DNA from: Candidatus Rokuibacteriota bacterium
GTDB lineage: Bacteria > Methylomirabilota > Methylomirabilia > Rokubacteriales > CSP1-6
NCBI GenBank assembly: GCA_003220315.1
Contig: QHSA01000145.1
Coordinates: forward strand, 1,087-65,086
Direction: 5' to 3'
Length of the DNA: 64,000 bases
Positions 2,722 through 54,865 of the stretch are shown here, one piece after another. Numbering within the stretch: position 1 is the first letter of the stretch; every line of letters begins with the position of its first letter. The notes beneath the pieces were generated by a model. It was not told where the DNA came from. It searched no databases and saw only the letters and a program-made list of their open reading frames with translations. Both the position numbers and the translations under genes were made by a program.

Positions 2722-3469
2722 GCCGCTGATCGCCGTCCGCGGCCTCAGCAAGAGCTTTGGCGGCCTGCGCGCGACCGACCGGGTCGACCTCGACGTGGAG
2801 GACGGCGAGACGCACGCGATCATCGGCCCGAACGGCGCGGGCAAGACCACGCTGATCGGCCAGCTCGCGGGCGACCTCCGGCCCGACGCCGGCACGACGC
2901 GCTTCGCGGGGCGGGACGTGACGTCGCTCGACGCGCCCGCGCGCTCACGGCTCGGGCTCGCGCGCTCGTTCCAGATCACCAGCATCTTTCCCGACTTCTC
3001 CGCGCTCGACAACGTCGCCCTGGCGGTCCAGGCGCATTCGGGTCATAGCTTCCACTTCTGGCGACCGGCCCGCGCCGAGCGCGAGCTCCGCGAGCCCGCG
3101 CTGGCGGTCCTCGGCGGGGTCGGCCTCGGCGCGCGCGCCGACGTCCTCGCGGCCAACCTCGCGCACGGCGAGCAGCGGCAGCTCGAGATCGCCATGGCGC
3201 TGGCGACCCGGCCGCGGCTGCTCCTGCTCGACGAGCCCGTCGCGGGCATGGGCCTCGAGGAGACGCAGCGCATGGTGCGCCTCCTCTCCACCCTCAAGCG
3301 GCGCGTAACGATCGTGCTGGTGGAGCACGACATGGACGCCGTGTTCACCCTCGCCGATCGGATCTCGGTGATGGTCTACGGCCGGATCATCGCCACCGGG
3401 AGCCCCGAGGAGGTCCGCGGCAACGCCGAGGTTCGCCGCGCCTACCTCGGCGAGGGGACCGAGTCCTGA
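2711..3469 (+). CDS. livG: Branched-chain amino acid ABC transporter ATP-binding protein LivG.
   Basis: Walker A GPNGAGKTT, ABC signature and Walker B present. Overlaps the livM end by 11 nt. Confidence 0.9.
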   Translation: MMAEPLIAVRGLSKSFGGLRATDRVDLDVEDGETHAIIGPNGAGKTTLIGQLAGDLRPDAGTTRFAGRDVTSLDAPARSRLGLARSFQITSIFPDFSALDNVALAVQAHSGHSFHFWRPARAERELREPALAVLGGVGLGARADVLAANLAHGEQRQLEIAMALATRPRLLLLDEPVAGMGLEETQRMVRLLSTLKRRVTIVLVEHDMDAVFTLADRISVMVYGRIIATGSPEEVRGNAEVRRAYLGEGTES

Positions 3470-40472: not shown

Positions 40473-41399
40473 ATGCCGGCGATGGCGGAGCTCACCAACG
40501 ACTTCTCCTGGTCGCGGAGCCGCGACAACGCCTTCCAGGAGTGCAAGCGCAGATACTACTATCACTATTACGGGGCGTGGGGAGGCTGGGACGCCGCGGC
40601 GCCCGAGGAAGTCCGACGGCTCTACGTCCTGAAGCAGCTCGCCTCCCGCCAGCAGTGGGCGGGGCGCGTCGTGCACGACGCGATCGAGATGGCCCTGCAC
40701 GCCTTCGCGCAGGGCCGGGACATCCCCGTCGAGCCCTTCATCGCCGACGTCATCGAGCGGATGCGGGGCGAGTGGCGCTCCTCGAGGGCGGGCCACTACC
40801 GAGACACTCCGAAGTCGACCGCGCTCTTCGAGCACGAGTACCGGGTCGAGCTCCAGCCGGAGGCGTGGCAGGCGCTCAGCCGCAACGTCGCCGTGTGCCT
40901 CCGGAACTTCTTCCACCTTCCGCTCACAGCCGAGATCCGCACGACGGTGCCCGAGCACTGGTCGATCGAGCACTGGTCGAAGGTCTTCGACTTCGAGGGC
41001 ACGGCCGTGTGGGTCGCGCCCGACTTCGGCTTCTGGACGCGCGACGGTCGCCTCGCCCTCGTCGACTGGAAGACGGGCGGTACCTCCCCGGACGGCGCGG
41101 CCTTCCAGCTGGGCTGCTACGCCCTGTACGCCCGCGACGTCCTCGGCGTCGAGCCCGCGCGTGTGGACCTCTTCGAGGCGAACCTCCGCGGGCCGGACGT
41201 GACGCGCATCCACTGGAGCGACGAGCGGCTCGAGGCGATCCGCGAGCAGCTCCGCCTCTCGATCCGGTCGATGAAAGCCTATCTCGTGGACCCGGAGGCG
41301 AACGTCGCGGTCGTCGCCGACTTCGAGAAGACCGAAGACCTGAGAATCTGTCGCTGGTGCAACTTCCGCGCGGTCTGCCGCCCCGAGCTCAACGCCTGA
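40473..41399 (+). CDS. PD-(D/E)XK nuclease family protein with Cas4/AddB-type 4-Cys Fe-S motif (standalone Cas4-like).
   Basis: N-terminal Cys, hhhDxK core (LALVDWKTG) and C-terminal C-x2-C-x5-C (CRWCNFRAVC). Confidence 0.7.
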   Translation: MPAMAELTNDFSWSRSRDNAFQECKRRYYYHYYGAWGGWDAAAPEEVRRLYVLKQLASRQQWAGRVVHDAIEMALHAFAQGRDIPVEPFIADVIERMRGEWRSSRAGHYRDTPKSTALFEHEYRVELQPEAWQALSRNVAVCLRNFFHLPLTAEIRTTVPEHWSIEHWSKVFDFEGTAVWVAPDFGFWTRDGRLALVDWKTGGTSPDGAAFQLGCYALYARDVLGVEPARVDLFEANLRGPDVTRIHWSDERLEAIREQLRLSIRSMKAYLVDPEANVAVVADFEKTEDLRICRWCNFRAVCRPELNA

Positions 41400-41415
41400 G
41401 GGGGAGGAGAGGGAC

Positions 41416-42207
41416 GTGAGAGAGAACACGCTGAGGACGATCTGGGCGCGGGGCGAAGCCGTCGTGAACGGCTGGCTGTCGATTCCGAGCGGGTTCTCGG
41501 CGGAGGTCATGGCCCACCAGGGCTTCGACTCGCTCACCGTGGACATGCAGCACGGCGTCGTCGACTACCAGGTGGCCGTGACGATGCTCCAGGCGATCTC
41601 GACGACACCCGTGATCCCGTTGGCGCGCGTGCCCTGGAACGATCCGGCGCGCCTCATGAAGATCCTCGACGCCGGCGTGTACGGCGTCATCTGCCCGATG
41701 ATCAACTCGCGCGCCCAGGCCGAGGCGCTCGTCGCCGCGTGCAAGTACGCGCCACGCGGCTACCGGAGCTGGGGCCCGGTGCGAGCGTCGATCTACGCAG
41801 GCGGCGACTACGGCGACCACGCCAACGACGACTTGATCGTCATGCCGATGGTCGAGACGGCCGAGGCCGTGAAGAACATCGACGAGATCCTGAGTGTGCC
41901 AGGGGTGGACGCGGTCTATGTCGGTCCGTCGGATCTCAGCCTGACGCTCGGCTGCAAGCCGCGCCTGGACCAGACCGATCCGCCCGTGGTGGAAGCCCAG
42001 CAGAGGATCGTCGAGGCGTGCAAGCGCCACGGCGTGGTCGCGGGCATCCACAACGCGACCGCGGCCTACGCGCTTCAGATGATCGCCGCGGGCTACCAGT
42101 TCGTCACGCTGGCCAGCGACAGCCGCTTCCTCGCCGCCAAGGCCGCCGAGGAGGTCGCCGCCGTGCGGAAGACCGGTGTCAGGGCTGGGAAGCTGCCGGC
42201 GTACTGA
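41416..42207 (+). CDS. HpcH/HpaI aldolase / citrate lyase beta-like family protein.
   Basis: TIM-barrel aldolase motifs (MINSRAQAEALVAACKYAPRGYRSWGP, VGPSDLS). Confidence 0.8.
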   Translation: MRENTLRTIWARGEAVVNGWLSIPSGFSAEVMAHQGFDSLTVDMQHGVVDYQVAVTMLQAISTTPVIPLARVPWNDPARLMKILDAGVYGVICPMINSRAQAEALVAACKYAPRGYRSWGPVRASIYAGGDYGDHANDDLIVMPMVETAEAVKNIDEILSVPGVDAVYVGPSDLSLTLGCKPRLDQTDPPVVEAQQRIVEACKRHGVVAGIHNATAAYALQMIAAGYQFVTLASDSRFLAAKAAEEVAAVRKTGVRAGKLPAY

Positions 42208-42210
42208 CGC

Positions 42211-42843
42211 GTGACGGATCCGCCGCCTCTTCGCCTCGACGACGCGTTGCGCGCGCGGGCGCGCGCCAACCTCGCCGCCTTCGAGCGGAGGTCGCTCGCG
42301 CGCGACGGCCGCCGCCCGGCGGCGGTCGCCCTCGTGCTGCTGGACGACGACGAGGGACGCGCGTGCTTCCTCCTGACCCGTCGCGCTGCATCGCTCCGCG
42401 CCCACGCGCGACAGTGGGCGCTGCCCGGAGGCCGGATCGACCCGGGCGAGAGCGCCGAGCGCGCGGCGCTCCGCGAGCTCCGGGAGGAGGTCGGGCTCGA
42501 GCGCGACGAGCCCACGGTCCTCGGGCTGCTCGACGACTACGGCACGCGCTCGGGCTTCATCATCACCCCCGTGGTCGTCTGGGGCGGTTCGGGCGCGGCG
42601 CTCGTCGCGAATCCCGCCGAGGTCGCGAGCGTCCATCGGGTGCCGCTCGCCGACCTCGATCGCCCCGACGTCCCGCGCCTGGTCACGATCCCCGAGAGCG
42701 ACCGGCCCGTCATCCAGGTGCCGCTGCTCTCCACGCTGGTGCACGCGCCGACGGCGGCCGTGCTCTATCAGGTGCGCGAGGTCGTCGTCCATGGCCGCCC
42801 GACCCGGGTCGCCCACTTCGAGCAGCCGGTCTGGGCCTGGTGA
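42211..42843 (+). CDS. NUDIX CoA pyrophosphatase (NudL-like).
   Basis: Nudix box (LPGGRIDPGESAERAALRELREEVGL) and N-terminal NudL-type region. Confidence 0.7.
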   Translation: MTDPPPLRLDDALRARARANLAAFERRSLARDGRRPAAVALVLLDDDEGRACFLLTRRAASLRAHARQWALPGGRIDPGESAERAALRELREEVGLERDEPTVLGLLDDYGTRSGFIITPVVVWGGSGAALVANPAEVASVHRVPLADLDRPDVPRLVTIPESDRPVIQVPLLSTLVHAPTAAVLYQVREVVVHGRPTRVAHFEQPVWAW

Positions 42844-43020: not shown

Positions 43021-43812
43021 GTGATGGGCAGACTCGACGGGCAGGTGGCGATCGTCACCGGAGGCGGCAGCGGCATCGGCCGCGAAACCGCCAGGCTGCT
43101 CGCAGCGGAGGGCGCGCACGTTGTCGTCGCCGGCCGGCGCAAGCCGCCGCTCAACGACGTGGTCGGCGAGATCCAGAAGGCGGGCGGCAAGGCGACCGCC
43201 CGGCAGGCGGACGTCTCGAGGCACGTGGAGGCTGGCGAGCTCGCCCACTGGACGCTCGCGACGCTCGGCCGGGTCGACGTCCTCGTCAACAACGCCGGCC
43301 ACTCGAGCAGGGCCCGTTCGATCCGCTGGGTGGACAAGGACGAGTGGGACGGCGTGCTGGACGTCAACTTGAACGGCGTCTACGCCCTGACCCAGGCCGT
43401 GCTCCCGAGCATGATCGAGCGCGGGGGCGGAACGATCGTCACCGTCTCGTCGGTCGCCGCGCTCCGGCCGGGGCTCATCGGCGGCGCGCCGTACGGCGCC
43501 GCCAAGGCCGCCGTGCGGAACCTCATGGGCCACGTCCACACGGTCCTTCGCGACAAGGGGATTCGTGCGACGACGGTCATGCCGGCTGAGGTGGACACTC
43601 CGATCCTCGAGAACCGGCCATTGCCGCCGGACGCGAAGGCGCGGGCGACGATGATGCAGGCGGAGGACGTGGCGCGCGCGGTCCTCCTGTGCGTCACGCT
43701 GCCGCCGCGCACGGTGATCGAGGAGATCGTCATGAGCCCGACGATCTCCCGCGACATGAGCGCGGACATCGCCGCGGCGAGCCGCGCGGGCGCACCGCCG
43801 GGCGCCCCGTAG
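43021..43812 (+). CDS. SDR family oxidoreductase.
   Basis: TGGGSGIG Rossmann motif, NNAG and YxxxK. Confidence 0.9.
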   Translation: MMGRLDGQVAIVTGGGSGIGRETARLLAAEGAHVVVAGRRKPPLNDVVGEIQKAGGKATARQADVSRHVEAGELAHWTLATLGRVDVLVNNAGHSSRARSIRWVDKDEWDGVLDVNLNGVYALTQAVLPSMIERGGGTIVTVSSVAALRPGLIGGAPYGAAKAAVRNLMGHVHTVLRDKGIRATTVMPAEVDTPILENRPLPPDAKARATMMQAEDVARAVLLCVTLPPRTVIEEIVMSPTISRDMSADIAAASRAGAPPGAP

Positions 43813-43822
43813 GAGGACGGTC

Positions 43823-44734
43823 ATGGCTGAGCCGGGATTTACGCTGATCGACGACGGTCAAGCGGTCGAGGTGGCCTACGGCGACGGCGTCGAGCGCGCC
43901 GGGCACGCGCAGCGCGCGGGGCGTCCCGTCGCGCTCGACCTCGACGAGCGCGCCGCGTACCTCGGCGTGCCCGCGAGCGCCCGCGCGGCCGCGCTCGCCT
44001 CGCTCGAGGCGCCGGACTTCACGCTGCCCGGTCTCGATGGGCGCCCGCACACGCTCTCGGCCCACCGCGGGACGAAGGTCCTCCTGGTCGCTTACGCGTC
44101 CTGGTGAGGGTGCCGTCTCGACCTGCCCGTGTGGCAGGCGATCCAGGAGGAGCTGCGGGGCTTCGGCTTCACCGTCGTCACCGTGGCGCTCGATCGGAGC
44201 CCCGAGGACGCCCGCCCCTGGATCGAGGCCGCCAAGCCGACGCACCCGTCCCTGATCGACACCCGCCACCTCGTCGCGGACCTCTACAACGTGGTCAACG
44301 TGCCGACGATCGTCTGGATCGACGCGCGCGGCCGGATCGTCCGTCCGAACGACGTGGCCTTCGGCACCGACACCTTCAAGCACATCACCGGGCTCGAGGC
44401 CGCGAAGCACCTCGGGGCGCTCCGGGCATGGGTGAGGGGGGAGGCGCAGCCGCTCGCGGAGGCTCGCACCCGGGCGCTCCAGTCCCTGCCCACCGAGACG
44501 GACCAGCGGGCGCGCGCCGAGTTCGGCCTGGGCCAGTGGCTCGTCGAACGCGGGCGCGCCGAGGCCGCCGCGCGTCACTTCGAGCGGGCGGGTGAGCTCG
44601 CCCCGCACGACTTCACCATCCGACGCGGCACGATGCCGATGCGCGGCATCGATCCGATGGGACCCACGTTCCGAGAGATGCTCGGCGCGTGGACCAAGGC
44701 GGGGAACCCGTACTACCGACCTCTTCCGGAGTAG
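43823..44734 (+). CDS. TlpA/ResA-like thioredoxin-fold redoxin with an in-frame TGA (44105..44107) at the catalytic Cys position; selenoprotein candidate, alternatively a disrupted gene. C-terminal ~100-aa helical extension.
   Basis: ORFs 43823..44107 and 44129..44734 are the same frame. Together they form one redoxin domain: APDFTLPGLDGRPHTLSAHRGTKVLLVAYASW-TGA-GCRLDLP ... VVTVALDRSPEDARPWIEAAK ... VPTIVWIDARGRIV. A hairpin follows 11 nt after the TGA. Confidence 0.55.
44118..44141 (+). ncRNA. Candidate bacterial SECIS-like hairpin (UCG-A-CCUGCC / loop CGUGU / GGCAGG-CGA) 11 nt downstream of the in-frame UGA.
   Basis: Stem of 9 bp with one bulged A and a G/U-containing apical loop, seen directly. 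Confidence 0.4.
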
Positions 44735-44737
44735 ACC

Positions 44738-45730
44738 ATGGGCATGCTGGATGGCAAGGCGGCGCTGGTGACGGGCGCCGGACGCGGGATCGGCCGGGGA
44801 ATCGCGATCGCCCTCGCCAGGGCGGGGGCGAGGGTCGTCGTCAACGATCTCGGCGCGAGCCTGGCGGGCGAGGGCGGCGACACGCGTCCGGCCGCACAGG
44901 CGGTGGACGAGATCGTCAAGGCCGGCGGCACGGCGGCGCCGAACTTCGGCTCGGTCGCGGACTTCGCCGAGGCGACCGCGATGGTCGAGCAGGTGATCCG
45001 CACCTACGGTCGGATCGACATTCTCGTGCACGTGGCCGGGATCCTGCGCGACCGGATGATCTTCAACATGGCCGAGGGCGAGTGGGACGCGGTGATCGCG
45101 GTCCATTTGACGGGTATGTTCAACACGGTGCGGGCGGCCGCGGTCGCCATGCGCGAGGCGCGGGGCGGCCGGATCATCAGCATGTCGTCGGTCTCCGCGC
45201 TCGGCGCGCCGGGCCAGCCGAACTACGCCGCGGCGAAGGCCGGGATCCTCGGCCTCACGTGGTCCACCGCCAACGCGCTCGCGAAATACGGCGTGACCGC
45301 GAACGCGATCTTCCCGAGCGGCGCCACTCGCATGATCGACTCCACGCCGCGCGGTCGCGAGGTCTTCGCCGAGACCGGCAAGTGGCCGAGCGAGCTGGCC
45401 GCCGGGACCGAGCGCGACCCCGACAACGTCGCGCCCCTCGTCGTCTACCTGGCGAGTGACGGCGCCCGGCACGTCAACGGGCAGGTGTTCCACTCCTTCG
45501 GTTACGGCTACACGCTGCTCGCGCAGCCGCAGGCGGTGCGCCGGCTCGAGGCCGACCGGCGTCTCACGCCGGACGAGGTGGCGACGCTCTTTCCATCGAC
45601 GCTCGGCAGAGGCCTCAAGCCGCCGCCGGGCACGCTCTTCGGCAAGACCCTCCAGGAGCGTCCCGCCGGAGAATGGAAAGACCTCGGGGACGGTGCGCGG
45701 TTCTGGCAGTCGCCGTGGGAGGAGCCGTGA
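44738..45730 (+). CDS. SDR family oxidoreductase with C-terminal extension.
   Basis: TGAGRGIG Rossmann motif and the S-Y-K catalytic pattern (YAAAK). Confidence 0.85.
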   Translation: MGMLDGKAALVTGAGRGIGRGIAIALARAGARVVVNDLGASLAGEGGDTRPAAQAVDEIVKAGGTAAPNFGSVADFAEATAMVEQVIRTYGRIDILVHVAGILRDRMIFNMAEGEWDAVIAVHLTGMFNTVRAAAVAMREARGGRIISMSSVSALGAPGQPNYAAAKAGILGLTWSTANALAKYGVTANAIFPSGATRMIDSTPRGREVFAETGKWPSELAAGTERDPDNVAPLVVYLASDGARHVNGQVFHSFGYGYTLLAQPQAVRRLEADRRLTPDEVATLFPSTLGRGLKPPPGTLFGKTLQERPAGEWKDLGDGARFWQSPWEEP

Positions 45731-46215
45731 AGACGGTCCTCTTCGTCTGCCATGCCAACACGTGCCGGAGCGTGATGGCCCAGGTGCTGCTCGAGAAGAT
45801 GCTGGCGGAGCGGAACGGCCGTGCCCGCGTCCGGGTCCGGTCGGGCGGCGTCGGCCACACTGCGCGCGACGGCATGATCCCTTCTCTCGACGCCCGTCTT
45901 CTGCTCCGCGAGGACGGGATCCACCTCACGGAGACGGCGATCCTCTCCACGGATCTCCGCCGGCACCCGGAGGTCGTCGCCGCCGCCGACCTGATCCTGA
46001 CGATGACGGCGCGGCAGAAGCTCGAGCTGGCCGCCCTCCCCGAGTCGGACGGGCGGCCGGTGTTCACGCTCAAGGAGTTCGTGGGCGAGGACGGGGACAT
46101 CGCGGACCCGGTGGGCCAGGACGAGGACACGCACCGCGCCTGCCGCGACGAGATCAAGCGCTGCCTGGAGCTGTCGCTCGACCGGCTGCTCGTGACCATA
46201 GCCTTGGACCGATGA
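45727..46215 (+). CDS. Low-molecular-weight protein tyrosine phosphatase family (LMW-PTP/ArsC-like).
   Basis: CX5R P-loop (VCHANTCRS) and DP motif. GTGA overlap with the upstream stop. Confidence 0.7.
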   Translation: MKTVLFVCHANTCRSVMAQVLLEKMLAERNGRARVRVRSGGVGHTARDGMIPSLDARLLLREDGIHLTETAILSTDLRRHPEVVAAADLILTMTARQKLELAALPESDGRPVFTLKEFVGEDGDIADPVGQDEDTHRACRDEIKRCLELSLDRLLVTIALDR

Positions 46216-47186: not shown

Positions 47187-47322
47187 CGCGGTGAGTGGCG
47201 GCCCTCCTCAGCGTCCAGCGGGAGAAGGCCCTGGCGGCCGGCGCGAAGATCGAGCAGTTCACCTCGGTCCCGGAGGCCGGGAGCAGCTCTCGCCTCGCCT
47301 GAACGAAGAAGGAGCTGAGGGC

Positions 47323-48321
47323 ATGAACCGACGCGAGTTCCTGCACGCGACAGCGCTCGGCGGAACGGCTGCGTTCCTCGGGGCTCGACCCGATCCCGCG
47401 ACGGCGGAGGTGCCCCTGGAGACGACCGGGATCAGGCTTGTGCAGATCCCGGGCATCTGTGTCGCGCCGCAGTACGTCGCCGAGGAGCTGCTGAAGGCCG
47501 AGGGTTTCGCCGACGTAGGGTACGTCCAGAAGCCAGGAGCGGAGGGGATCTACAAGGCCCTCGGCTCGGGCGAGGCCCAGATCAGCATGGCCTTCGCTCC
47601 CCCGTTCATCATCCAGGTCGACGCGGGGGAGCCGATCGTCCTTCTGGCCGGGGTTCACATCGGATGCTACGAGCTGTTTGGGACGGACCGCGTGCGGACA
47701 ATCCGTGACCTCAAGGGGAAGGCCGTGGCCGTGCCCGCCCTGGGCTCGCCCCACCACACGTTCGTCGCCACCATGGGAGCGTACGTCGGGCTTGATCCCG
47801 GGAAGGACATCAACTTCATCGTCCACCCGCCCGCCGAGGCGATGCGACTCCTGGCCGAAGGCAAGCTCGACGCTCTGATAGGCTTCCCGCCGGTCCCGCA
47901 GGAGATGCGGGCGAGGAGGATCGGCCACGTCGTCGTTAACAGTGCGGTGGACCGCCCCTGGTCTCAGTACTTCTGCTGCATCGTGGCGGGGAACCGCGAG
48001 TTCGTTCGCAGGAACCCGGTTGCGACGAAGCGGGCGCTCCGCGCGATCTTGAAAGCGTCGAATGTCTGCGCCACGGAGCCGGCGCGCGCAGCCCGGCTCC
48101 TCGTGGACAAGGGCTTCGCCAAGGTTTACGACTATGCGCTCCAGACGATGAAGGAGCTGCCCTACGCGAAGTGGCGCGACTATAACCCGGAGGACTCTGT
48201 TCGTTTCTATGCCCTCCGCCTTCACGAGGCCGGGATGATCAAGTCCAGTCCCCAGAAGGTCATCGCCCAGGGCACCGACTGGCGCTTCCTCAACGAGCTC
48301 CGAAAGGAGTTGAAGGGATGA
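47323..48321 (+). CDS. NitT/TauT-family (NMT1-like) ABC substrate-binding protein with TAT signal, array paralog 1.
   Basis: RREFLH twin-arginine motif. Near-identical to the three downstream paralogs (e.g. VDRPWSQYFCCIVAGNREFV). Confidence 0.8.
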   Translation: MNRREFLHATALGGTAAFLGARPDPATAEVPLETTGIRLVQIPGICVAPQYVAEELLKAEGFADVGYVQKPGAEGIYKALGSGEAQISMAFAPPFIIQVDAGEPIVLLAGVHIGCYELFGTDRVRTIRDLKGKAVAVPALGSPHHTFVATMGAYVGLDPGKDINFIVHPPAEAMRLLAEGKLDALIGFPPVPQEMRARRIGHVVVNSAVDRPWSQYFCCIVAGNREFVRRNPVATKRALRAILKASNVCATEPARAARLLVDKGFAKVYDYALQTMKELPYAKWRDYNPEDSVRFYALRLHEAGMIKSSPQKVIAQGTDWRFLNELRKELKG

Positions 48322-48542
48322 TCCGCGCTGTGCTGGACCTGTCCGCGCTCGAGGTCGTTCACCCCCGGGTGGCGATTGCCCTTCGCACGAAGTCGGGGTC
48401 CGAGCGACTGCGGCTCGCCCACGAGAGCTGGGAACTGGCGAGAGAGCGGGTGAGTGCCTTCTTCGCGGCAACGCACGCGGACTGGGACGCAGCACGTGTC
48501 GCCCGTGAGGTGGCGCGGAGGCTCCTGGGTGACTCAGGCTGA
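48318..48542 (+). CDS. Small hypothetical protein (74 aa), ATGA-coupled to SBP paralog 1; a degenerate second copy lies at 52142..52230.
   Basis: ORF overlaps the downstream NTase-fold gene start by 14 nt. A truncated duplicate elsewhere in the array argues it is part of a mobile/duplicated unit. Confidence 0.35.
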   Translation: MIRAVLDLSALEVVHPRVAIALRTKSGSERLRLAHESWELARERVSAFFAATHADWDAARVAREVARRLLGDSG

Positions 48543-49095
48543 GCTCCTGCGCTACGTTGTGGAGACGCTGGAGGAACAAGAGATTCCGTATATGATCGGC
48601 GGGTCGCAGGCGGCCGTGTACTACGGCGAGCCGAGATTCACCCGGGACGTCGATGTCGTGGCCGGCCTCGGGCCGGCACAGATTCATGCGCTGCTCGCCC
48701 GGTTTCCCGCGCCGGACTTCTATGTGAGCGGCGAGGCAGCACGCGAGGCTGTCGAAACCCGCGGACAATTCAACATCATCCATCCTGCGTCGGGCCTCAA
48801 GATCGACATCTTCGTCAACAGGGACACGCCCTACGATCGCTTACGGCTCGAGCGTCGCCGACGCCTGCCGCTGGTTCCAGGACGGGACGCGTGGTTCGCG
48901 CGCGCCGAGGACGTGATCCTATACAAGCTGATCTACTACCGGGACGGTCAGTCCGAGCTACATCTTCGAGACGTCATCGGGATCCTGCGGGTCTCGGGGG
49001 ATGAGGTCGATTCGCGCTACATCACCGAGTGGGCCGAGCGCCTCGGGCTCGGCTCCCTCTGGGACGCAGTGCTCAAGCGAGCCGGGCACGAATGA
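48529..49095 (+). CDS. Nucleotidyltransferase-fold protein (GS-x11-RDVDVV motif).
   Basis: hG[GS]x9-13Dh[DE]h polymerase-beta-like NTase signature in IGGSQAAVYYGEPRFTRDVDVV. GTG start overlapping the small upstream ORF. Confidence 0.5.
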   Translation: MTQAELLRYVVETLEEQEIPYMIGGSQAAVYYGEPRFTRDVDVVAGLGPAQIHALLARFPAPDFYVSGEAAREAVETRGQFNIIHPASGLKIDIFVNRDTPYDRLRLERRRRLPLVPGRDAWFARAEDVILYKLIYYRDGQSELHLRDVIGILRVSGDEVDSRYITEWAERLGLGSLWDAVLKRAGHE

Positions 49096-49110
49096 TGCGG
49101 GAGCCCAGCA

Positions 49111-49147
49111 GGTCGTTGTGGGACGAGCTGAAGAAGGAGCCGAAGCG
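49111..49147 (+). pseudogene. Remnant 3' end of an SBP paralog (…WDELKKEPKR*) fused to the start of SBP paralog 2; recombination scar.
   Basis: gtcgttgtgggacgagctgaagaaggagccgaagcgATGa mirrors the cgcttcctcaacgagctgaagaaggagctgaagggATGa junctions. Confidence 0.45.
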
Positions 49148-50149
49148 ATGATCAGCCGACGGGAGTTCTTGCGTGGTCTGACGCTGGCGGGGACAGCGAG
49201 CCTCGCCGGACTTGGACCCGAATTGGCCGGAGCCGAGCCGCCGCCCGAGACGACGCGACTCAGAATTTCCCGCGTCCCCAGCACCTGCCGGAGCCCGGAG
49301 TGGATGGCCGAAGAGCTGCTCCGGGCCGAGGGTTTCTCCCACGTGCAGTACACTCCGACAGCAGGGACCGTCGGGGTCGAGCAGGCGCTCGCTTCGGGCG
49401 AGGCTGATATCAGTGGGCACTTCGCGGCGCCGGTGATCCTGCGAGTCGAGGCAGGAGACCCTATCGTCATCCTGGCTGGCGAGCACGTCGGCTGCTTCGA
49501 ACTGCTGGGCACCGATCGTATCCGAACGATCCGCGACCTCAAGGGAAGGACGGTCGCGGTGCCCGCGCTGGACCCCAGTCCCTACGCGTTCCTCGCCAGC
49601 ATGACGGCGTACGTGGGCCTGGATCCCAACAAGGACATCAACTGGGTCAAGCATCCCGCGAGCGAGTCGATGCGGCTTCTCGCCGAGGGAAAGATCGACG
49701 CGTACCTGGGCTTCCCTCCCGAGCCGCAGGCGCTGCGCGCGAAAGGGATCGGCCGCGTCGTGGTCAACAGCGCAGTGGACCGGCCCTGGTCCCAGTACTT
49801 CTGCTGCATGCTGGTCGGGAACCGGGAGTTCGTCCGGAAGCACCCGGTGGCGACCAAGCGCGCCCTGCGCGCCATTCTCAAGGCGGCCGACCTGTGCGCT
49901 GCTCAGCCTGAGAGGGTCGCGCGGTTCATCGTCGAGGGGGGCGTGGCGAAGAACTACGACTACGCTCTCCAGGCCATCAAGGGATTGCCGTACGGCAGGT
50001 GGCGCGAGTACGACCCGGAGGACACGTTGCGCTTCTACGCGCTCCGCTTGAAGGAGGCGGGAATGATCAAGAGCAGTCCACAAAAAATCATCACCCAGAG
50101 TGCGGATTGGCGCTTCCTCAGCGAGCTGAAGAAGGAGTTGAAGGGATGA
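49148..50149 (+). CDS. NitT/TauT-family substrate-binding protein with TAT signal, array paralog 2.
   Basis: RREFLRG and the conserved paralog core. Confidence 0.8.
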   Translation: MISRREFLRGLTLAGTASLAGLGPELAGAEPPPETTRLRISRVPSTCRSPEWMAEELLRAEGFSHVQYTPTAGTVGVEQALASGEADISGHFAAPVILRVEAGDPIVILAGEHVGCFELLGTDRIRTIRDLKGRTVAVPALDPSPYAFLASMTAYVGLDPNKDINWVKHPASESMRLLAEGKIDAYLGFPPEPQALRAKGIGRVVVNSAVDRPWSQYFCCMLVGNREFVRKHPVATKRALRAILKAADLCAAQPERVARFIVEGGVAKNYDYALQAIKGLPYGRWREYDPEDTLRFYALRLKEAGMIKSSPQKIITQSADWRFLSELKKELKG

Positions 50150-51135
50150 TCACCCGGCGGGCGCTCCTCAGTGGTCTCGCGCTGGCCGGCGGTGGCGGAC
50201 TGCTCGGCCTGACATCCCGGCCGGCCGCCGCCGAGCCGCCCCCCGAGACCACGAGGGTTCGACTGGTCCAGATCGCGGGAATCTGCGTCGCGCCGCAATA
50301 TGTGGCCGAGGAGATGCTGCGGGCCGAGGGGTTCGTGGACGTGCAGTACGTTCAGTTCCTGACCAACCCCTATAAGGCCTTTGCGGCCGGCGACGTCGAC
50401 CTCAGTATGGCCTTCGTCGCCCCCTTCATTCTCCAGGTGGACCGAGGCAACCCCATTGTCCTGCTGGGGGGAGTGCACGTCGGCTGCTACGAGTTGTTCG
50501 GTACCGATCGGGTCAACACGATCCGTGACCTCCGGGACAAGACCGTTTCCATCCCCGAGATCGAGTCACCGCATCACGTGTTCGTCGCCAGCATGGCCTC
50601 CTACGTCGGCCTGGATCCCGGCAAGGACATTCGCTTCGTGACCCAGGCTCCGACCGAGGCCGTGCAACATCTGGCCGAGCGCAAGATCGACGCTCTCATG
50701 GCCTTTCCGCCCCTCTCCCAGGAGCTGCGGGCCAGGAAGATCGGGCATGTGGTCGTCAACAGCGGCGTGGACCGGCCCTGGTCGCAGTACTTTTGCTGCA
50801 TCGTGGCCGCCAACCGGGAGTTCGTGCGTAAGCACCCGGTGGCGACGAAGCGGGCCTTGCGCGCCATCTTGAAGGCCGCCAACCTGTGTGCGCTGGAGCC
50901 GGACCGGGCCGCGCGCCGCGTGGCCGACCGGGGTTACAACTACGACTACGCGCTGCAGACCATGAGAGAGATCCCGTACGGGCGGTGGCGGGAGTTCGAC
51001 CCCGAGGACGCGGTGCGCTTCCATGCTCTCCGCCTCCACGAGGCAAGGATGATCACGTCGAACCCGAAGAAGATCATCGCCGAGGGCACCGACTGGCGAT
51101 TCTGGAACGAGCTGAAGAAGGAGCTGAAGGGATGA
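50146..51135 (+). CDS. NitT/TauT-family substrate-binding protein with TAT signal, array paralog 3.
   Basis: ATGA overlap with paralog 2. RRALLSG and the conserved core. Confidence 0.8.
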   Translation: MITRRALLSGLALAGGGGLLGLTSRPAAAEPPPETTRVRLVQIAGICVAPQYVAEEMLRAEGFVDVQYVQFLTNPYKAFAAGDVDLSMAFVAPFILQVDRGNPIVLLGGVHVGCYELFGTDRVNTIRDLRDKTVSIPEIESPHHVFVASMASYVGLDPGKDIRFVTQAPTEAVQHLAERKIDALMAFPPLSQELRARKIGHVVVNSGVDRPWSQYFCCIVAANREFVRKHPVATKRALRAILKAANLCALEPDRAARRVADRGYNYDYALQTMREIPYGRWREFDPEDAVRFHALRLHEARMITSNPKKIIAEGTDWRFWNELKKELKG

Positions 51136-52145
51136 TCACCCGGCGGGACCTTCTCGGTGGACTGGCTGCGACGGGAGGCATGGGGCTGCTCGGCCTCGAC
51201 GCCCGGCCGGCGGCCGCCGAGCCACCACCGGAGACGACCCGGATCCGGCTATCGAAGGTACCCAGCGTCTGTGTGGCGCCCCAGTACGTCGCCGAGGAGT
51301 TTTTGACAGCCGAGGGGTTCACCGACGTCCGCTACGTCGGCGAGAAGGGGGCGGGAGTCGGCGGCATCCCCCTGGCCAAGGCGATGGGCGCCGGTGAGGT
51401 CGACGTCGCCATGAACTTCGCCGCGCCGCTGGTCGTCTCCCTCGACGCGGGAGAGCCGATCATCCTCCTGGGCGGCGTGCACGTCGGGTGCTTCGAGCTG
51501 TTCGGGAGCGAGCGGGTGCGGACGCTCAGCGACCTGAAAGGCAAGACGGTCGCCGTCCCCCAGTTGAATTCCCCTCAGCACACCTTCATCGCCAGCATCG
51601 TCACCCAGATCGGGCTCGATCCCAACCGGGACATCACGTGGCTTCTGCACCCCCCGGCCGAGGCCAAGCGGCTTCTGGCGGAGGGCAAGATCGACGGCTT
51701 TCTCGGGTTCCCGCCCGACCCTCAGGAGCTGCGCGCCAGGAAGATCGGGCGGGTCCTGGTCAACAGCGCAGTCGACCGCCCCTGGTCCCAGTACTTCTGC
51801 TGCCTGGTCTCGGCCAACCGCGAGTTCGTCAAGAGACACCCCGTGGCGACCAAGCGCGCCCTGCGCGCCATCCTCAAGGGCGATCAGCTCTGCGCCGTGG
51901 ACCCGGGCCGGGGCGCGCGGGCATTTGCAGACCGGGGCTTCAAGGGCGTTCCAGAGTACGCCCGCCAGGCGATGACGGAAATCCCGTTCGGCCGCTGGCG
52001 GGAGTACAAGCCGGAGGAGACCGTGCGCTTCTACGCGCTCCGCCTGCGGGAAGCCGGGATGGTGAAGGGCAGCCCACAGAAGCTGATTGCCGAAGGCACA
52101 GACTGGAGATTCCTCAACGAGCTGAGGAAGGAGCTGAAAGGATGA
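51132..52145 (+). CDS. NitT/TauT-family substrate-binding protein with TAT signal, array paralog 4.
   Basis: ATGA overlap with paralog 3. RRDLLGG and the conserved core. Confidence 0.8.
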   Translation: MITRRDLLGGLAATGGMGLLGLDARPAAAEPPPETTRIRLSKVPSVCVAPQYVAEEFLTAEGFTDVRYVGEKGAGVGGIPLAKAMGAGEVDVAMNFAAPLVVSLDAGEPIILLGGVHVGCFELFGSERVRTLSDLKGKTVAVPQLNSPQHTFIASIVTQIGLDPNRDITWLLHPPAEAKRLLAEGKIDGFLGFPPDPQELRARKIGRVLVNSAVDRPWSQYFCCLVSANREFVKRHPVATKRALRAILKGDQLCAVDPGRGARAFADRGFKGVPEYARQAMTEIPFGRWREYKPEETVRFYALRLREAGMVKGSPQKLIAEGTDWRFLNELRKELKG

Positions 52146-52651
52146 TCCGCGCTGTGCGGGACCTGTCCGCGAGCTGGGAACTCGGCTAAGCGCCTTCTTC
52201 GCGGCAACGCACCCGGACTGGGACGGAACGAGAGATCGTTCTGCGACGAGCTGAAGAGGATGTGAAGGGATGACTCGCGACGGGCTGCTAAACCGACGAA
52301 ACCTTCCACCGGGACGAGACGCTTCGCCACGGGATCGGCGGCCAGAAAAAGACTCTCGAGGGCCACGGCTCCGAGCAGAGCGGGTCCACCTGGGGCGATG
52401 AAGCAGGGCGTTGTCACCTCTCGCCCGTTGATGGCAACGCGCACCTCGGCGACGGGCCAGACCTCCTTCCGACCTCCAGCGATCTGGACAGGCTGGGTAC
52501 GCAGCGCGAGGATCTCGAGCTGATCAGCCAGCGAACGCGGAACCACCAGGAGCGTCGCACCAGTGTCGACCAGCAGGTCAAGAGTCGCCGTCCGCCCTGT
52601 GGGACCGGTGAGACTGGCTGAGACGTGAAAGAGCCCCATAATTGCCTTCAT
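52031..52651 (-). CDS. Retropepsin-like (clan AA) aspartic protease; 3' end uncertain.
   Basis: N-terminal 125 aa carry the LVDTGATLLVVP active-site motif of bacterial retropepsin-like proteases. No in-frame stop until 52031; the C-terminal ~80 aa are antisense to SBP-repeat scar sequence and probably non-native. Confidence 0.45.
   Translation of the reverse strand: MKAIMGLFHVSASLTGPTGRTATLDLLVDTGATLLVVPRSLADQLEILALRTQPVQIAGGRKEVWPVAEVRVAINGREVTTPCFIAPGGPALLGAVALESLFLAADPVAKRLVPVEGFVGLAARRESSLHILFSSSQNDLSFRPSPGALPRRRRLAEFPARGQVPHSADHPFSSFLSSLRNLQSVPSAISFCGLPFTIPASRRRSA
52142..52290 (+). pseudogene. Collapsed copy of the [small ORF – NTase – SBP-junction] unit: truncated duplicate of the 48318 ORF 5' end (MIRAVRDLSASWELG*) plus a degenerate SBP-tail/start junction.
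   Basis: atgatccgcgctgtgcgggacctgtccgcg ... gccttcttcgcggcaacgcacccggactgggacg aligns with 48318..48490 with a roughly 100-nt deletion. 52240..52290 mirrors the SBP junction motif. Confidence 0.45.
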
Positions 52652-52751: not shown

Positions 52752-53360
52752 GTGAGCAATCGCCGCGCGTGGTGCCTGACGATCGTGGTCCTGCTCCTGG
52801 CGAGCGGCTGGGCTGCGCCAGACGATGGCCACGCGGCGGGGGGGACTAACGGTCTTCCCAAGATCGGTCCCGCGCCCGACTTCACGCTGACCACGCAGGA
52901 CGGCGCACGCATGTCCCTCCGGGATCTACGCGGGAAGGTCGTCGCGGTGACGTTCATCTATGCGAGCTGCACCGACACGTGCCCCCTCCTGACGGCGAAG
53001 ATGGCCGCGCTCCAGGCCAAGCTCGGCCCCGAGTTCGGCTCACGTGTGTTCTTCGCGTCCGTGACCGTCGATCCCGAGCGCGACACGCCAGTGGTCCTCA
53101 GGCGCTACGCCCAGGCCCACGGGGCGAATCCGGGGGGCTGGGCGTTTCTCACGGGGTCGCCGGCCGAGATCCGGGACGTGGAGAGGCGGTACGGAGTCTA
53201 CGCCCGGAAGAACCCGGCGGGAGACGTGGATCACACCTTCCTCACGTCTTTGATCGACAGGAACGGGATCCTCCGCGTCCAGTATCTGGGAGTGCGGTTC
53301 GACCCCGACGAGCTCCTCGGAGACGTGCAGAGTCTGCTGCGGGAGATGGGGCGGCAGTGA
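52752..53360 (+). CDS. SCO1/SenC-family copper chaperone (thioredoxin-like, CxxxC).
   Basis: Signal/anchor, YASCTDTCP motif and conserved His (HTF). Confidence 0.8.
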   Translation: MSNRRAWCLTIVVLLLASGWAAPDDGHAAGGTNGLPKIGPAPDFTLTTQDGARMSLRDLRGKVVAVTFIYASCTDTCPLLTAKMAALQAKLGPEFGSRVFFASVTVDPERDTPVVLRRYAQAHGANPGGWAFLTGSPAEIRDVERRYGVYARKNPAGDVDHTFLTSLIDRNGILRVQYLGVRFDPDELLGDVQSLLREMGRQ

Positions 53361-54865
53361 CGTGGCTGGTCGGGCTCATCGCGCGGATGCCTGTCACGGT
53401 CCACGCAAAGCTCCTGGCGGCGTTCCTCGCCATCGTCGTGCTGCTCATCACGGTGGGCGCGGTCGGCCTGCAGACGCTGAGCGCCGTGAACCGCCGCGCC
53501 GAGAATCTGGTCCAGCTCCAGCGCAAGATCGCCGCCTACCGCCAGCTCCAGCACGACACCACCAGCCAGCTCTACAGCGTCTCCTCGGCGCTCCTGGTCC
53601 CCGACGAGCGAACGCTCGAGGCCACGTTGCGTCAGCTCAACCAGTTCGGCTACGACCTCGACCGGCTCCAGTTCGTCGCGAAGGACGAAGTCGAACTGCT
53701 CAGCCGGGTCCGCGAGGACTATGACCAGTTCATCAAGGTCGTGACCCAGGTCGTCGAGCTGATTCGCGCCGCCAAGGTGGCCCAGGGCCGGGAGGTTCAA
53801 CTTGTTCAGGCCGGTCCCCTTGCGGACCGGCTCGAGCGCTTGACCAACGAACTCGTGAACAAGGCCGAGGCGGACATGGTGGCGTCGATCGACGCGACAC
53901 ACGAGGCGTACGTGGGCTCCCGGTGGGTCGTCATCGGCTTCGCGGTCGGCTCCATCGCGCTCGCCCTGAGCCTCGGCTACGCGATCTCCTGGTCACTGAT
54001 CGGCCCGGTGCGGCACATGGACGAACGGCTGAAGCGGCTCGCCTCAGGCGACTTCGCTGGTCGCGTCGAGATCCCGAACCGCGACGAGTTCGGCGCCCTC
54101 GCGGCGAACCTCAACCGGATGAGCGAGGAGCTGGGACGGCTCTACCAGCAGCTCGAGGCTGCGAGCCGCCACAAGTCGGAGTTCCTGGCGAATATGTCGC
54201 ACGAGCTGAGGACCCCGCTCAACGCGATCATCGGCTTCTCGGAGGTCCTCCTCGAGCGGATGTTCGGCGAACTCAACCCCAAACAGGAAGAGTATCTTCA
54301 GGACATCATGACGTCGGGTCGCCATCTGCTCTCGCTCATCAACGACATCCTCGACCTCTCTAAGATCGAGGCCGGCCGCATGGAGCTCGAGCCGAGCGCG
54401 TTCGACTTGCCGGCCGCGCTCGAGGGCTGCCTGACCCTCGTGCGCGAGCGCGCGACTCGTCACGGCATCACGTTGGGGCTGACGGTCGACGAGCATCTCG
54501 GGCAGATCGTCGCCGACGAGCGGAAGGTTCGGCAGGTCGTGCTGAACCTGCTCTCGAATGCCGTGAAATTCACTCCCCAAGGCGGCCGAGTCGCGATCAA
54601 TGCCGTCCGGGCCGACGGAGCCACGGAGATCTCGGTGAGCGACACTGGCATCGGCATCGCGGCCGAGGACCAGGAGCTCATCTTCGAGGAGTTCCGCCAG
54701 GCTGGCGGCGACTACACACGAAAGCGCGAGGGAACCGGGCTCGGCCTGGCGCTCGCGCGGAAGTTCGTCGAGCTCCACGGCGGGCGGATCTGGGTCAAGA
54801 GCGAGATGGGCAAAGGGTCGACGTTCACCTTCGCCCTACCGGAGAGACCATGGCCGGCGAGCTGA
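53357..54865 (+). CDS. Sensor histidine kinase (two TM helices, HAMP, HisKA, HATPase_c).
   Basis: H-box SHELRTPLN, and N / G1 / G2 boxes. GTGA overlap with the sco1 stop. Confidence 0.85.
   Translation: MTWLVGLIARMPVTVHAKLLAAFLAIVVLLITVGAVGLQTLSAVNRRAENLVQLQRKIAAYRQLQHDTTSQLYSVSSALLVPDERTLEATLRQLNQFGYDLDRLQFVAKDEVELLSRVREDYDQFIKVVTQVVELIRAAKVAQGREVQLVQAGPLADRLERLTNELVNKAEADMVASIDATHEAYVGSRWVVIGFAVGSIALALSLGYAISWSLIGPVRHMDERLKRLASGDFAGRVEIPNRDEFGALAANLNRMSEELGRLYQQLEAASRHKSEFLANMSHELRTPLNAIIGFSEVLLERMFGELNPKQEEYLQDIMTSGRHLLSLINDILDLSKIEAGRMELEPSAFDLPAALEGCLTLVRERATRHGITLGLTVDEHLGQIVADERKVRQVVLNLLSNAVKFTPQGGRVAINAVRADGATEISVSDTGIGIAAEDQELIFEEFRQAGGDYTRKREGTGLGLALARKFVELHGGRIWVKSEMGKGSTFTFALPERPWPAS

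Follow-up and report, generated by a model that had tools for sequence, protein, structure and literature searches.

Selenoproteins with a thioredoxin fold and a U-G-C active site, in which U denotes selenocysteine (Sec), have been catalogued before. The Global Ocean Sampling (GOS) selenoproteome paper lists a family named "Prx-like (UGC-containing)", assigned to pfam00578 and carrying the motif UGC, for which 46 Sec sequences and 855 Cys homologs were recorded and which is commoner in non-marine samples (PMC2398784). The UGC family is not mentioned in the main text of Peng et al. 2016 (PMC5029168). Rokubacteria now count as an order, Rokubacteriales, of the phylum Methylomirabilota (PMC8780371). 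Of all predicted bacterial selenoproteomes, the largest is reported from this phylum; a single metagenome-assembled genome (MAG) from it has 63 predicted selenoprotein genes (PMC13188914), and Sec-type [NiFeSe] hydrogenases are also found there (PMC13582414). Here we describe a gene at positions 43823-44734 on the forward strand of a 64,000-nt stretch of DNA (hereafter the window) from a Candidatus Rokuibacteriota contig (QHSA01000145.1, assembly GCA_003220315.1). Comparative sequence analysis indicates that this is very probably a functional selenoprotein gene, encoding a ResA/TlpA-like thioredoxin-fold oxidoreductase of a Rokubacteriales soil bacterium in which an in-frame UGA is read as Sec.

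The gene comprises 303 codons in a single frame and ends in TAG. Its one in-frame TGA (44105-44107) is flanked as follows: VLLVAYASW-[TGA]-GCRLDLPVWQ. A mechanical list of open reading frames (ORFs) divides the gene into 43823-44107 (94 aa) and 44129-44734 (201 aa), and the same split recurs in all orthologous loci and in public gene calls. Translation of 43823-44734 bore out the view of the initial annotation that the two listed ORFs form one frame and, together with an alignment of Cys homologs, that the TGA is its only interruption and falls at the site of the redox Cys. The GTG taken as the start of the downstream ORF (44129-44131) is the Val codon of a D-L-P-V-W-Q peptide, and it supplies the G-U of the hairpin loop described below. 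TGA is also the commonest stop in the window, where it ends 28 of 41 gene-like ORFs; the code in use is thus the standard one, with recoding that is local.

A search of proteins with the read-through product of the window gene gave more than 100 clusters, each at 76-98% identity and 186-207 aa in length, which is the size of the fragment that gene callers begin just past the TGA. The same search found a few full-length homologs (~348 aa, 50-61% identity) that read Y-A-S-W-C-G-C-R-Y-D-L-P at the position aligned with the TGA. Across 52 full-length Cys homologs (43-59% identity), whose hosts include Binatia, Myxococcota, Acidimicrobiia, Hyphomonadaceae and others, S-W-C-G-C-R is invariant, and the window TGA stands at the first Cys of this motif. 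The UGA therefore aligns with the nucleophilic active-site position and is proposed to encode Sec (U95). The second Cys of the motif, encoded by TGC at 44111-44113 and predicted to be the resolving residue, is invariant in Sec and Cys forms alike. The initial annotation had described the U-G-C motif as one residue shorter than CxxC and as unusual. The shorter spacing is real, but it is not unusual: because C-G-C is invariant in the Cys homologs, the seemingly short motif is native to the family and no codon is missing. Alignment of orthologs, which had been suggested as a check on this spacing, shows that both Cys and Sec forms exist and that the C-x-C spacing is invariant.

Orthologous DNA was collected from 80 metagenome loci and two assembly loci, with protein identities to the window gene of ~67-99%. 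The TGA is kept in all 82 loci and in 71 of 71 unique sequences (71-75 sequences are distinct overall). Upstream of the TGA, mean column entropy over 32 codons is 0.30, 0.26 and 1.07 at codon positions 1, 2 and 3, and over 100 codons downstream the corresponding values are 0.41, 0.31 and 0.82. Such codon-periodic variation on both sides of the TGA indicates that both halves are translated and under purifying selection, which excludes a pseudogene and renders a pair of independent genes implausible. The active-site motif includes the seven invariant codons that lead from the TGA to the GTG (G-C-R-L-D-L-P). One locus, an ENA contig (L059), was left out of the alignments. It has a frameshift-like discrepancy at ~3300-3315, just 3' of the hairpin, together with a garbled upstream peptide, and this discrepancy is probably an assembly error.

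Downstream of the UGA and within the coding sequence lies a conserved core hairpin (44122-44138, forward strand), composed of a 5' arm CCUGCC (44122-44127), a loop CGUGU (44128-44132) and a 3' arm GGCAGG (44133-44138). In the window the hairpin can be extended to 44118-44141 by three outer base pairs (44118-44120 with 44139-44141) next to a bulged A at 44121. This extension is specific to the clade, and its outer pairs form in only 60% of ortholog cells. The 9-bp hairpin with a G-U loop that was originally reported at 44118-44141 is thus present, but only six of its nine pairs are conserved. According to a 2026 review of the prokaryotic selenoproteome (PMC13188914), the consensus bacterial selenocysteine insertion sequence (bSECIS) has an apical loop of 3-9 nt, a stem of 4-16 bp in its upper part, a G at loop position 1 or 2 that is usually followed by G or U, a distance of 16-37 nt between UGA and loop, and a minimum free energy (MFE) of -7.5 kcal/mol or lower. 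Checked by script, the hairpin lies within all of these limits: the loop has 5 nt (S-G-U-S-U), the stem 6 bp, the spacing is 20 nt and the MFE is -9.3 to -14 kcal/mol (-14 for the window). The suggestion that the element has the geometry of a bacterial SECIS is accordingly upheld.

The orthologs also bear on whether the hairpin is conserved as RNA. Across 54 distinct sequences, 99.7% of the cells of the 6-bp stem are paired, and its sixth pair shows one compensatory change from C-G to U-A (L060, GAC to GAU) and one mismatch (L082). Covariation is seen between loop positions 1 and 4 (44128 and 44131) in the same sequences (G:C in 33, C:G in 17, other combinations in 4), in counts that are not corrected for phylogeny, a caveat that belongs with the adverse points gathered below. 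The covarying bases are the third positions of the codons Pro+7 and Val+8. They are C..G or G..C in 50 of the 54 distinct sequences and point to a pair that closes on an exposed G-U, so that the apex reads S-(G-U)-S. Synonymous entropy is very low in the stem codons (Asp+5, 0.10; Leu+6, 0; Gln+10, 0) compared with 60 other conserved degenerate codons (mean 0.86, with only 8% as low as the stem codons), and other Leu codons in the redoxin gene have values of 0.50-1.70. These sequence comparisons show RNA-level constraint on the hairpin. Val+8 (GUS), which provides the loop G-U, is invariant in Sec forms, whereas the same position is occupied by S, A, G, V or Q in Cys forms. The Cys-form hairpins also include uncompensated GAU and CAA codons.

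A known element for comparison is the SECIS of Escherichia coli fdhF. Both are in-frame hairpins located just 3' of the UGA, with a small loop and an exposed G-U that is closed by a G:C or C:G pair, but their stem sequences are unrelated, and where fdhF has a 5' bulged U the hairpin described here has an extra 3' loop U instead. The apical loop of fdhF is G-G-U-C, and the commoner variant here is also G-G-U-C.

Evidence for Sec machinery in the lineage comes from a scan of a genome collection with a GC-rich back-translation of the SelA PLP-lysine motif. Among the matches listed (at least 120) was one Candidatus Methylomirabilia MAG (L161), in which an 8-kb segment carries selA adjoining selB. 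These assignments are well above the model cutoffs (TIGR00474, 552 bits versus a cutoff of 268 for selA; TIGR00475, 369 bits versus 242 for selB). Soil metagenomes and MAGs named Methylomirabilota contain more than 120 relatives of this SelA at 77-89% identity, and three NCBI MAGs with redoxin orthologs are labeled Candidatus Rokuibacteriota. One carrier of the redoxin gene is contig QHSW01000034.1 of the Rokubacteriales genome GCA_003221675.1. Matching of NCBI accessions did not reveal SelA and the redoxin in one and the same assembly. Two 92-nt ARAGORN calls, a tRNA-Val(cac) and a tRNA-Ala(cgc) at 398-489 of locus L016 and 249-340 of locus L059 (both on the reverse strand), were rejected as false positives. 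Both lie antisense inside a conserved HpcH/HpaI aldolase gene ~2.6 kb upstream of the redoxin, and for this reason they are not considered to be tRNA-Sec-like or allo-tRNAs.

A number of observations weigh against Sec insertion at this site. Neither a tRNA (ARAGORN) nor any Rfam RNA family was detected in the 64-kb window, and signature motifs of SelA, SelD and SelB and a tRNA-Sec were absent from the window and from ~456 kb of orthologous loci. Among the 54 distinct sequences, five of the six stem pairs are constant and hence carry no covariation information. The D-L-P-x-W-Q peptide dictates much of the stem (CUGCC/GGCAG), and a weaker hairpin (-5 to -13 kcal/mol) is present in genes of the Cys form too. 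The folding energy of the 81-nt region is no better than that of dinucleotide shuffles (z=+0.64), and 2.4% of the 1443 TGAs in the window, which has a GC content of 69.5%, are followed by a hairpin with six or more perfect pairs and a suitable geometry; no such hairpin stands after any of the 17 gene-terminal TGAs that were checked on the forward strand. Since the folding energy is not significant, the weight rests on the ortholog comparison, which is decisive. The last adverse point concerns the identity of the inserted residue. SelB- and SECIS-dependent tRNAs that insert Cys (tRNA-ReC, or SelC*) are known from several phyla (PMC13582414, citing Vargas-Rodriguez et al. 2018), and insertion of Cys, which would give a C-G-C protein by the same recoding route, is not distinguishable from insertion of Sec in sequence. 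We consider this outcome unlikely here. Such tRNAs are infrequent overall and are not reported for Methylomirabilota genomes in PMC13582414, selA, which is needed only for Sec synthesis, adjoins selB in the lineage, and the retention of a costly UGA throughout the clade would be hard to explain if Cys, which is one mutation away, sufficed.

Explanations that dispense with recoding fare worse. The division into a 94-aa protein ending at the TGA and a 201-aa protein starting from GTG 44129 is the one given by gene callers and by NCBI annotation (e.g. the 203-aa "thioredoxin family protein" PYN57807.1), but it would separate strand beta1 of the thioredoxin fold from the active-site helix and would leave the seven invariant codons, part of an active-site motif that is common to unsplit homologs, outside both genes. 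In addition, no purine-rich ribosome-binding sequence precedes this GTG, which is a Val codon of the conserved peptide, so that two separate genes are very improbable. The initial annotation had left a choice between a Sec-containing redoxin with a U-x-C site and mutational disruption. A pseudogene would have arisen by a nonsense mutation, or by a 3-nt deletion (TGY-NNA to TGA), that inactivated a C-x-x-C redoxin. A lone in-frame stop in an otherwise intact frame and a motif that appears one residue short of CxxC would fit such a pseudogene, but nothing is missing from the native C-G-C motif, a dead gene would gather more stops and frameshifts, and the same TGA is found in 82 of 82 loci with coding constraint on both sides. 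Copies of one contaminant are ruled out as the source of this uniformity by the 71-75 distinct sequences. Disruption can hence be set aside with high confidence, and a Sec redoxin is favored by a TGA at the invariant Cys, by its retention in every locus and by a constrained, bSECIS-compliant hairpin. The chance that sequencing or assembly error created the TGA is negligible, given that the identical codon appears in independent JGI, ENA, NCBI and Logan assemblies and that seven contigs encode an identical 201-aa product.

If the UGA at 44105-44107 is recoded as Sec in translation, the hairpin at 44122-44138 would be expected to recruit SelB together with Sec-tRNA(Sec) while itself being part of the coding sequence. 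The product would carry a U-G-C redox center at the N-terminus of helix alpha1, presumably with selenium rather than sulfur at the nucleophilic position. Based on the fold and on general knowledge of Sec and Cys redox chemistry, the selenolate may attack a substrate disulfide or an oxidized thiol, and the Cys two residues further on could resolve the intermediate via an intramolecular selenenylsulfide. A separate reductant would then re-reduce the redox center.

The predicted protein has three regions. With Cys in place of the TGA stop, residues 62-179, which span the TGA, match the Pfam models AhpC-TSA (PF00578; E=6e-15, exceeding the gathering score) and Redoxin (E=3e-11). This interval (44006-44359, forward strand) corresponds to the ResA-like thioredoxin-fold catalytic domain, an assignment also supported by a structure model of a Cys homolog and by matches in the PDB. 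The model is an AlphaFold2 prediction of a homolog (P0055) that is 58% identical to the window protein, and it has a mean predicted local distance difference test score (pLDDT) of 95.3 and a predicted template modeling score (pTM) of 0.92. Its domains are an N-terminal beta-rich region (~1-100), a thioredoxin fold (~105-225) and a C-terminal helical region (~229-336). In this model C138-G-C140 lies at the N-terminus of helix 139-157 (alpha1), directly after a beta-strand, and Foldseek matches the central domain to ResA, StoA, DsbE-like and TlpA structures (E~1e-10, TM scores of 0.80-0.86 relative to the target). The modeled structure thus places Sec at the canonical nucleophile position of a thioredoxin-fold oxidoreductase.

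The regions on either side set the clade apart. Alignments and a survey of the upstream regions of Sec forms show that the N-terminal region of the window protein is shortened (residues 1-61; 43823-44005, forward strand). The window clade is without a ~45-residue N-terminal sub-domain that has a near-invariant Cys-pair motif (LGWxL...GLCxxxxCVP) and that is kept in all Cys forms and in a subset of Sec forms, the "long" forms (e.g. loci L063, L066, L068, L069, L071, L075, L081 and L082). This sub-domain could be a second redox or metal site. The C-terminal domain (44375-44731, forward strand) is predicted to be all-helical and specific to the sub-family, based on weak matches to TPR models and on helices 229-336 of the homolog model. 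Inspection of the sequence, without a dedicated predictor, revealed no N-terminal hydrophobic segment in the window protein, and the protein is therefore probably cytoplasmic, unlike ResA and TlpA.

Given this architecture, we compared the protein with the families to which it is most similar. By fold and motif, the gene falls within the broad definition of the UGC family ("Prx-like (UGC-containing)", or UGC-containing TlpA disulfide reductase), of which MDE0950781.1 is the catalogued representative. The shared features are a thioredoxin-fold domain of the AhpC-TSA/TlpA type (pfam00578 / cd02966), a single Sec in a U-G-C motif (W-U-G-C-R here) and homologs with C-G-C (W-C-G-C-R). The catalogued family is enriched in non-marine samples and the window clade comes from soil. 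The catalogue entry makes no mention of the extra N- and C-terminal domains that are present here.

Among NCBIfam models the best match by a wide margin is NF041054, "ResA-like WAxxUGC motif-containing protein" (WAxxUGC_long, 354 positions), with E=6e-63. The window protein scores 213.4 bits against this model, other Sec forms score 222-258 (252-258 for the long forms) and Cys forms 232-281, and all of these values are under the equivalog cutoff of 300 bits. The alignment covers model positions 50-204 for the window protein and ~7-205 of 354 for the long forms, from which it follows that a different domain occupies the C-terminal ~150 residues. The clade and NF041054 have in common an N-terminal domain, a ResA-like domain and, if either W or Y is allowed in first place, the motif [W/Y]-A-x-x-U-G-C. 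They differ in the C-terminal domain, and the window clade additionally lacks ~45 N-terminal residues. The window motif is Y-A-S-W-U-G-C compared with W-A-x-x-U-G-C in the model, and a few orthologs have W-A-S-W-U-G-C or W-G-S-W-U-G-C. The Rokubacteriales clade is thus not an equivalog member of NF041054.

ResA, TlpA and StoA have the closest solved folds and likewise hold their nucleophile at the N-terminus of helix alpha1, but they have C-x-x-C rather than U-x-C, are membrane-anchored or secreted, and do not contain Sec. The window protein is not a ResA or TlpA, because it has no C-x-x-C and no anchor and its NCBIfam scores are far under the cutoffs (50 versus 170 bits for ResA, 42 versus 230 bits for TlpA). 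With respect to the peroxiredoxin motif P-x-x-x-T/S-x-x-C, the residues before U are Y-A-S-W, which puts a Ser at -2 and not a Thr or Ser at -3. Models for PrxQ/BCP score far under their own cutoffs, and the Pfam AhpC-TSA match is present.

We regard it as possible, although somewhat short of probable, that the Rokubacteriales clade is a distinct sub-family of UGC redoxins, characterized by the C-terminal helical domain and by loss of the N-terminal Cys-pair sub-domain in the window branch, whose SECIS was exapted from a latent coding hairpin. Written in GC-rich codons (GAC CUG CCN NNN UGG CAG), the peptide D-L-P-x-W-Q is self-complementary, which means that genes of the Cys form already hold a stem that is correctly spaced from the active-site codon. 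If exaptation took place, a change from TGC to TGA together with fixation of x as Val (GUN, with G-U in the loop) would make a working Sec site, and this could account for the tendency of this redoxin family to turn into selenoproteins.

The redoxin sits in a compact gene cluster on the forward strand. An SDR-family oxidoreductase (43021-43812), identified from gene calls and synteny, ends 10 nt upstream of the redoxin start and is a probable operon partner. A second SDR-family oxidoreductase (44738-45730) and a protein with a low-molecular-weight (LMW) phosphatase fold (~45727-46215) are tightly packed downstream. This order is kept in Sec-form loci, in which Nudix, SDR, redoxin, SDR and LMW-phosphatase-fold genes follow one another with gaps of a few nucleotides. 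The neighbors (Nudix, two SDRs, LMW-phosphatase fold) are generic and provide no clue to the substrate. Two Cys-form loci (L089 and L090) also have an SDR gene upstream of the redoxin. After the Cys-form redoxin, these loci encode a ferredoxin-thioredoxin-reductase catalytic-subunit-like protein (PF02943, in one Cys form) and/or a DUF480 protein (L089, 1835-2260 and 2274-2784; L090, 3536-4216), and these neighbors of the Cys forms may point to a redox partner.

A scan of the window for other genes with an in-frame TGA yielded only candidates that we rejected, namely antisense or off-frame ORFs and ordinary junctions between genes in the same frame. One such junction involves the HpcH/HpaI aldolase and Nudix genes (41344-42843, forward strand), which share a frame and are parted by a TGA (42205-42207) and one codon. 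The arrangement imitates a split ORF but is an ordinary two-gene junction. The window also contains a second thioredoxin-fold gene (52752-53360, forward strand), which is SCO1/SenC-like, has a C-T-D-T-C motif and a hydrophobic N-terminal segment, and is intact with no in-frame stop; a HAMP/HisKA sensor kinase gene follows directly (~53357-54865, forward strand). Elsewhere (~47320-52150, forward strand), four tandem paralogous genes for NMT1/ABC-type substrate-binding proteins lie downstream of an ABC_sub_bind gene, as projected from the Pfam table of an identical contig (L083, 11490-16312).

In public records the clade is represented by 201-203-aa proteins labeled "thioredoxin family protein" or "hypothetical protein", accompanied by an orphan ORF of ~94 aa. 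The NCBI MAG records PYN57807.1, PYN14490.1 and PYN04782.1 (L001, 10001-10612), for example, list only the 203-aa C-terminal fragment, named "thioredoxin family protein", and the more than 100 clusters in protein collections are fragments of this kind in which the Sec codon is unannotated. That NF041054 does not capture the clade may explain why annotation pipelines miss the gene.

The find leaves Sec biology as it is known unchanged. This kind of selenoprotein is already catalogued and the phylum is already known to be selenoprotein-rich, so the gene is less unusual than the initial annotation implied. Once the Sec codon is recognized, the enzyme regains its full 303 aa, active site included, and the selenoproteome of the Rokubacteriales, an uncultured soil lineage, gains one entry. 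A hairpin that is largely encoded by a conserved peptide and that pre-exists in Cys forms also makes the gene a small and testable case of the way in which a SECIS can originate in bacteria.

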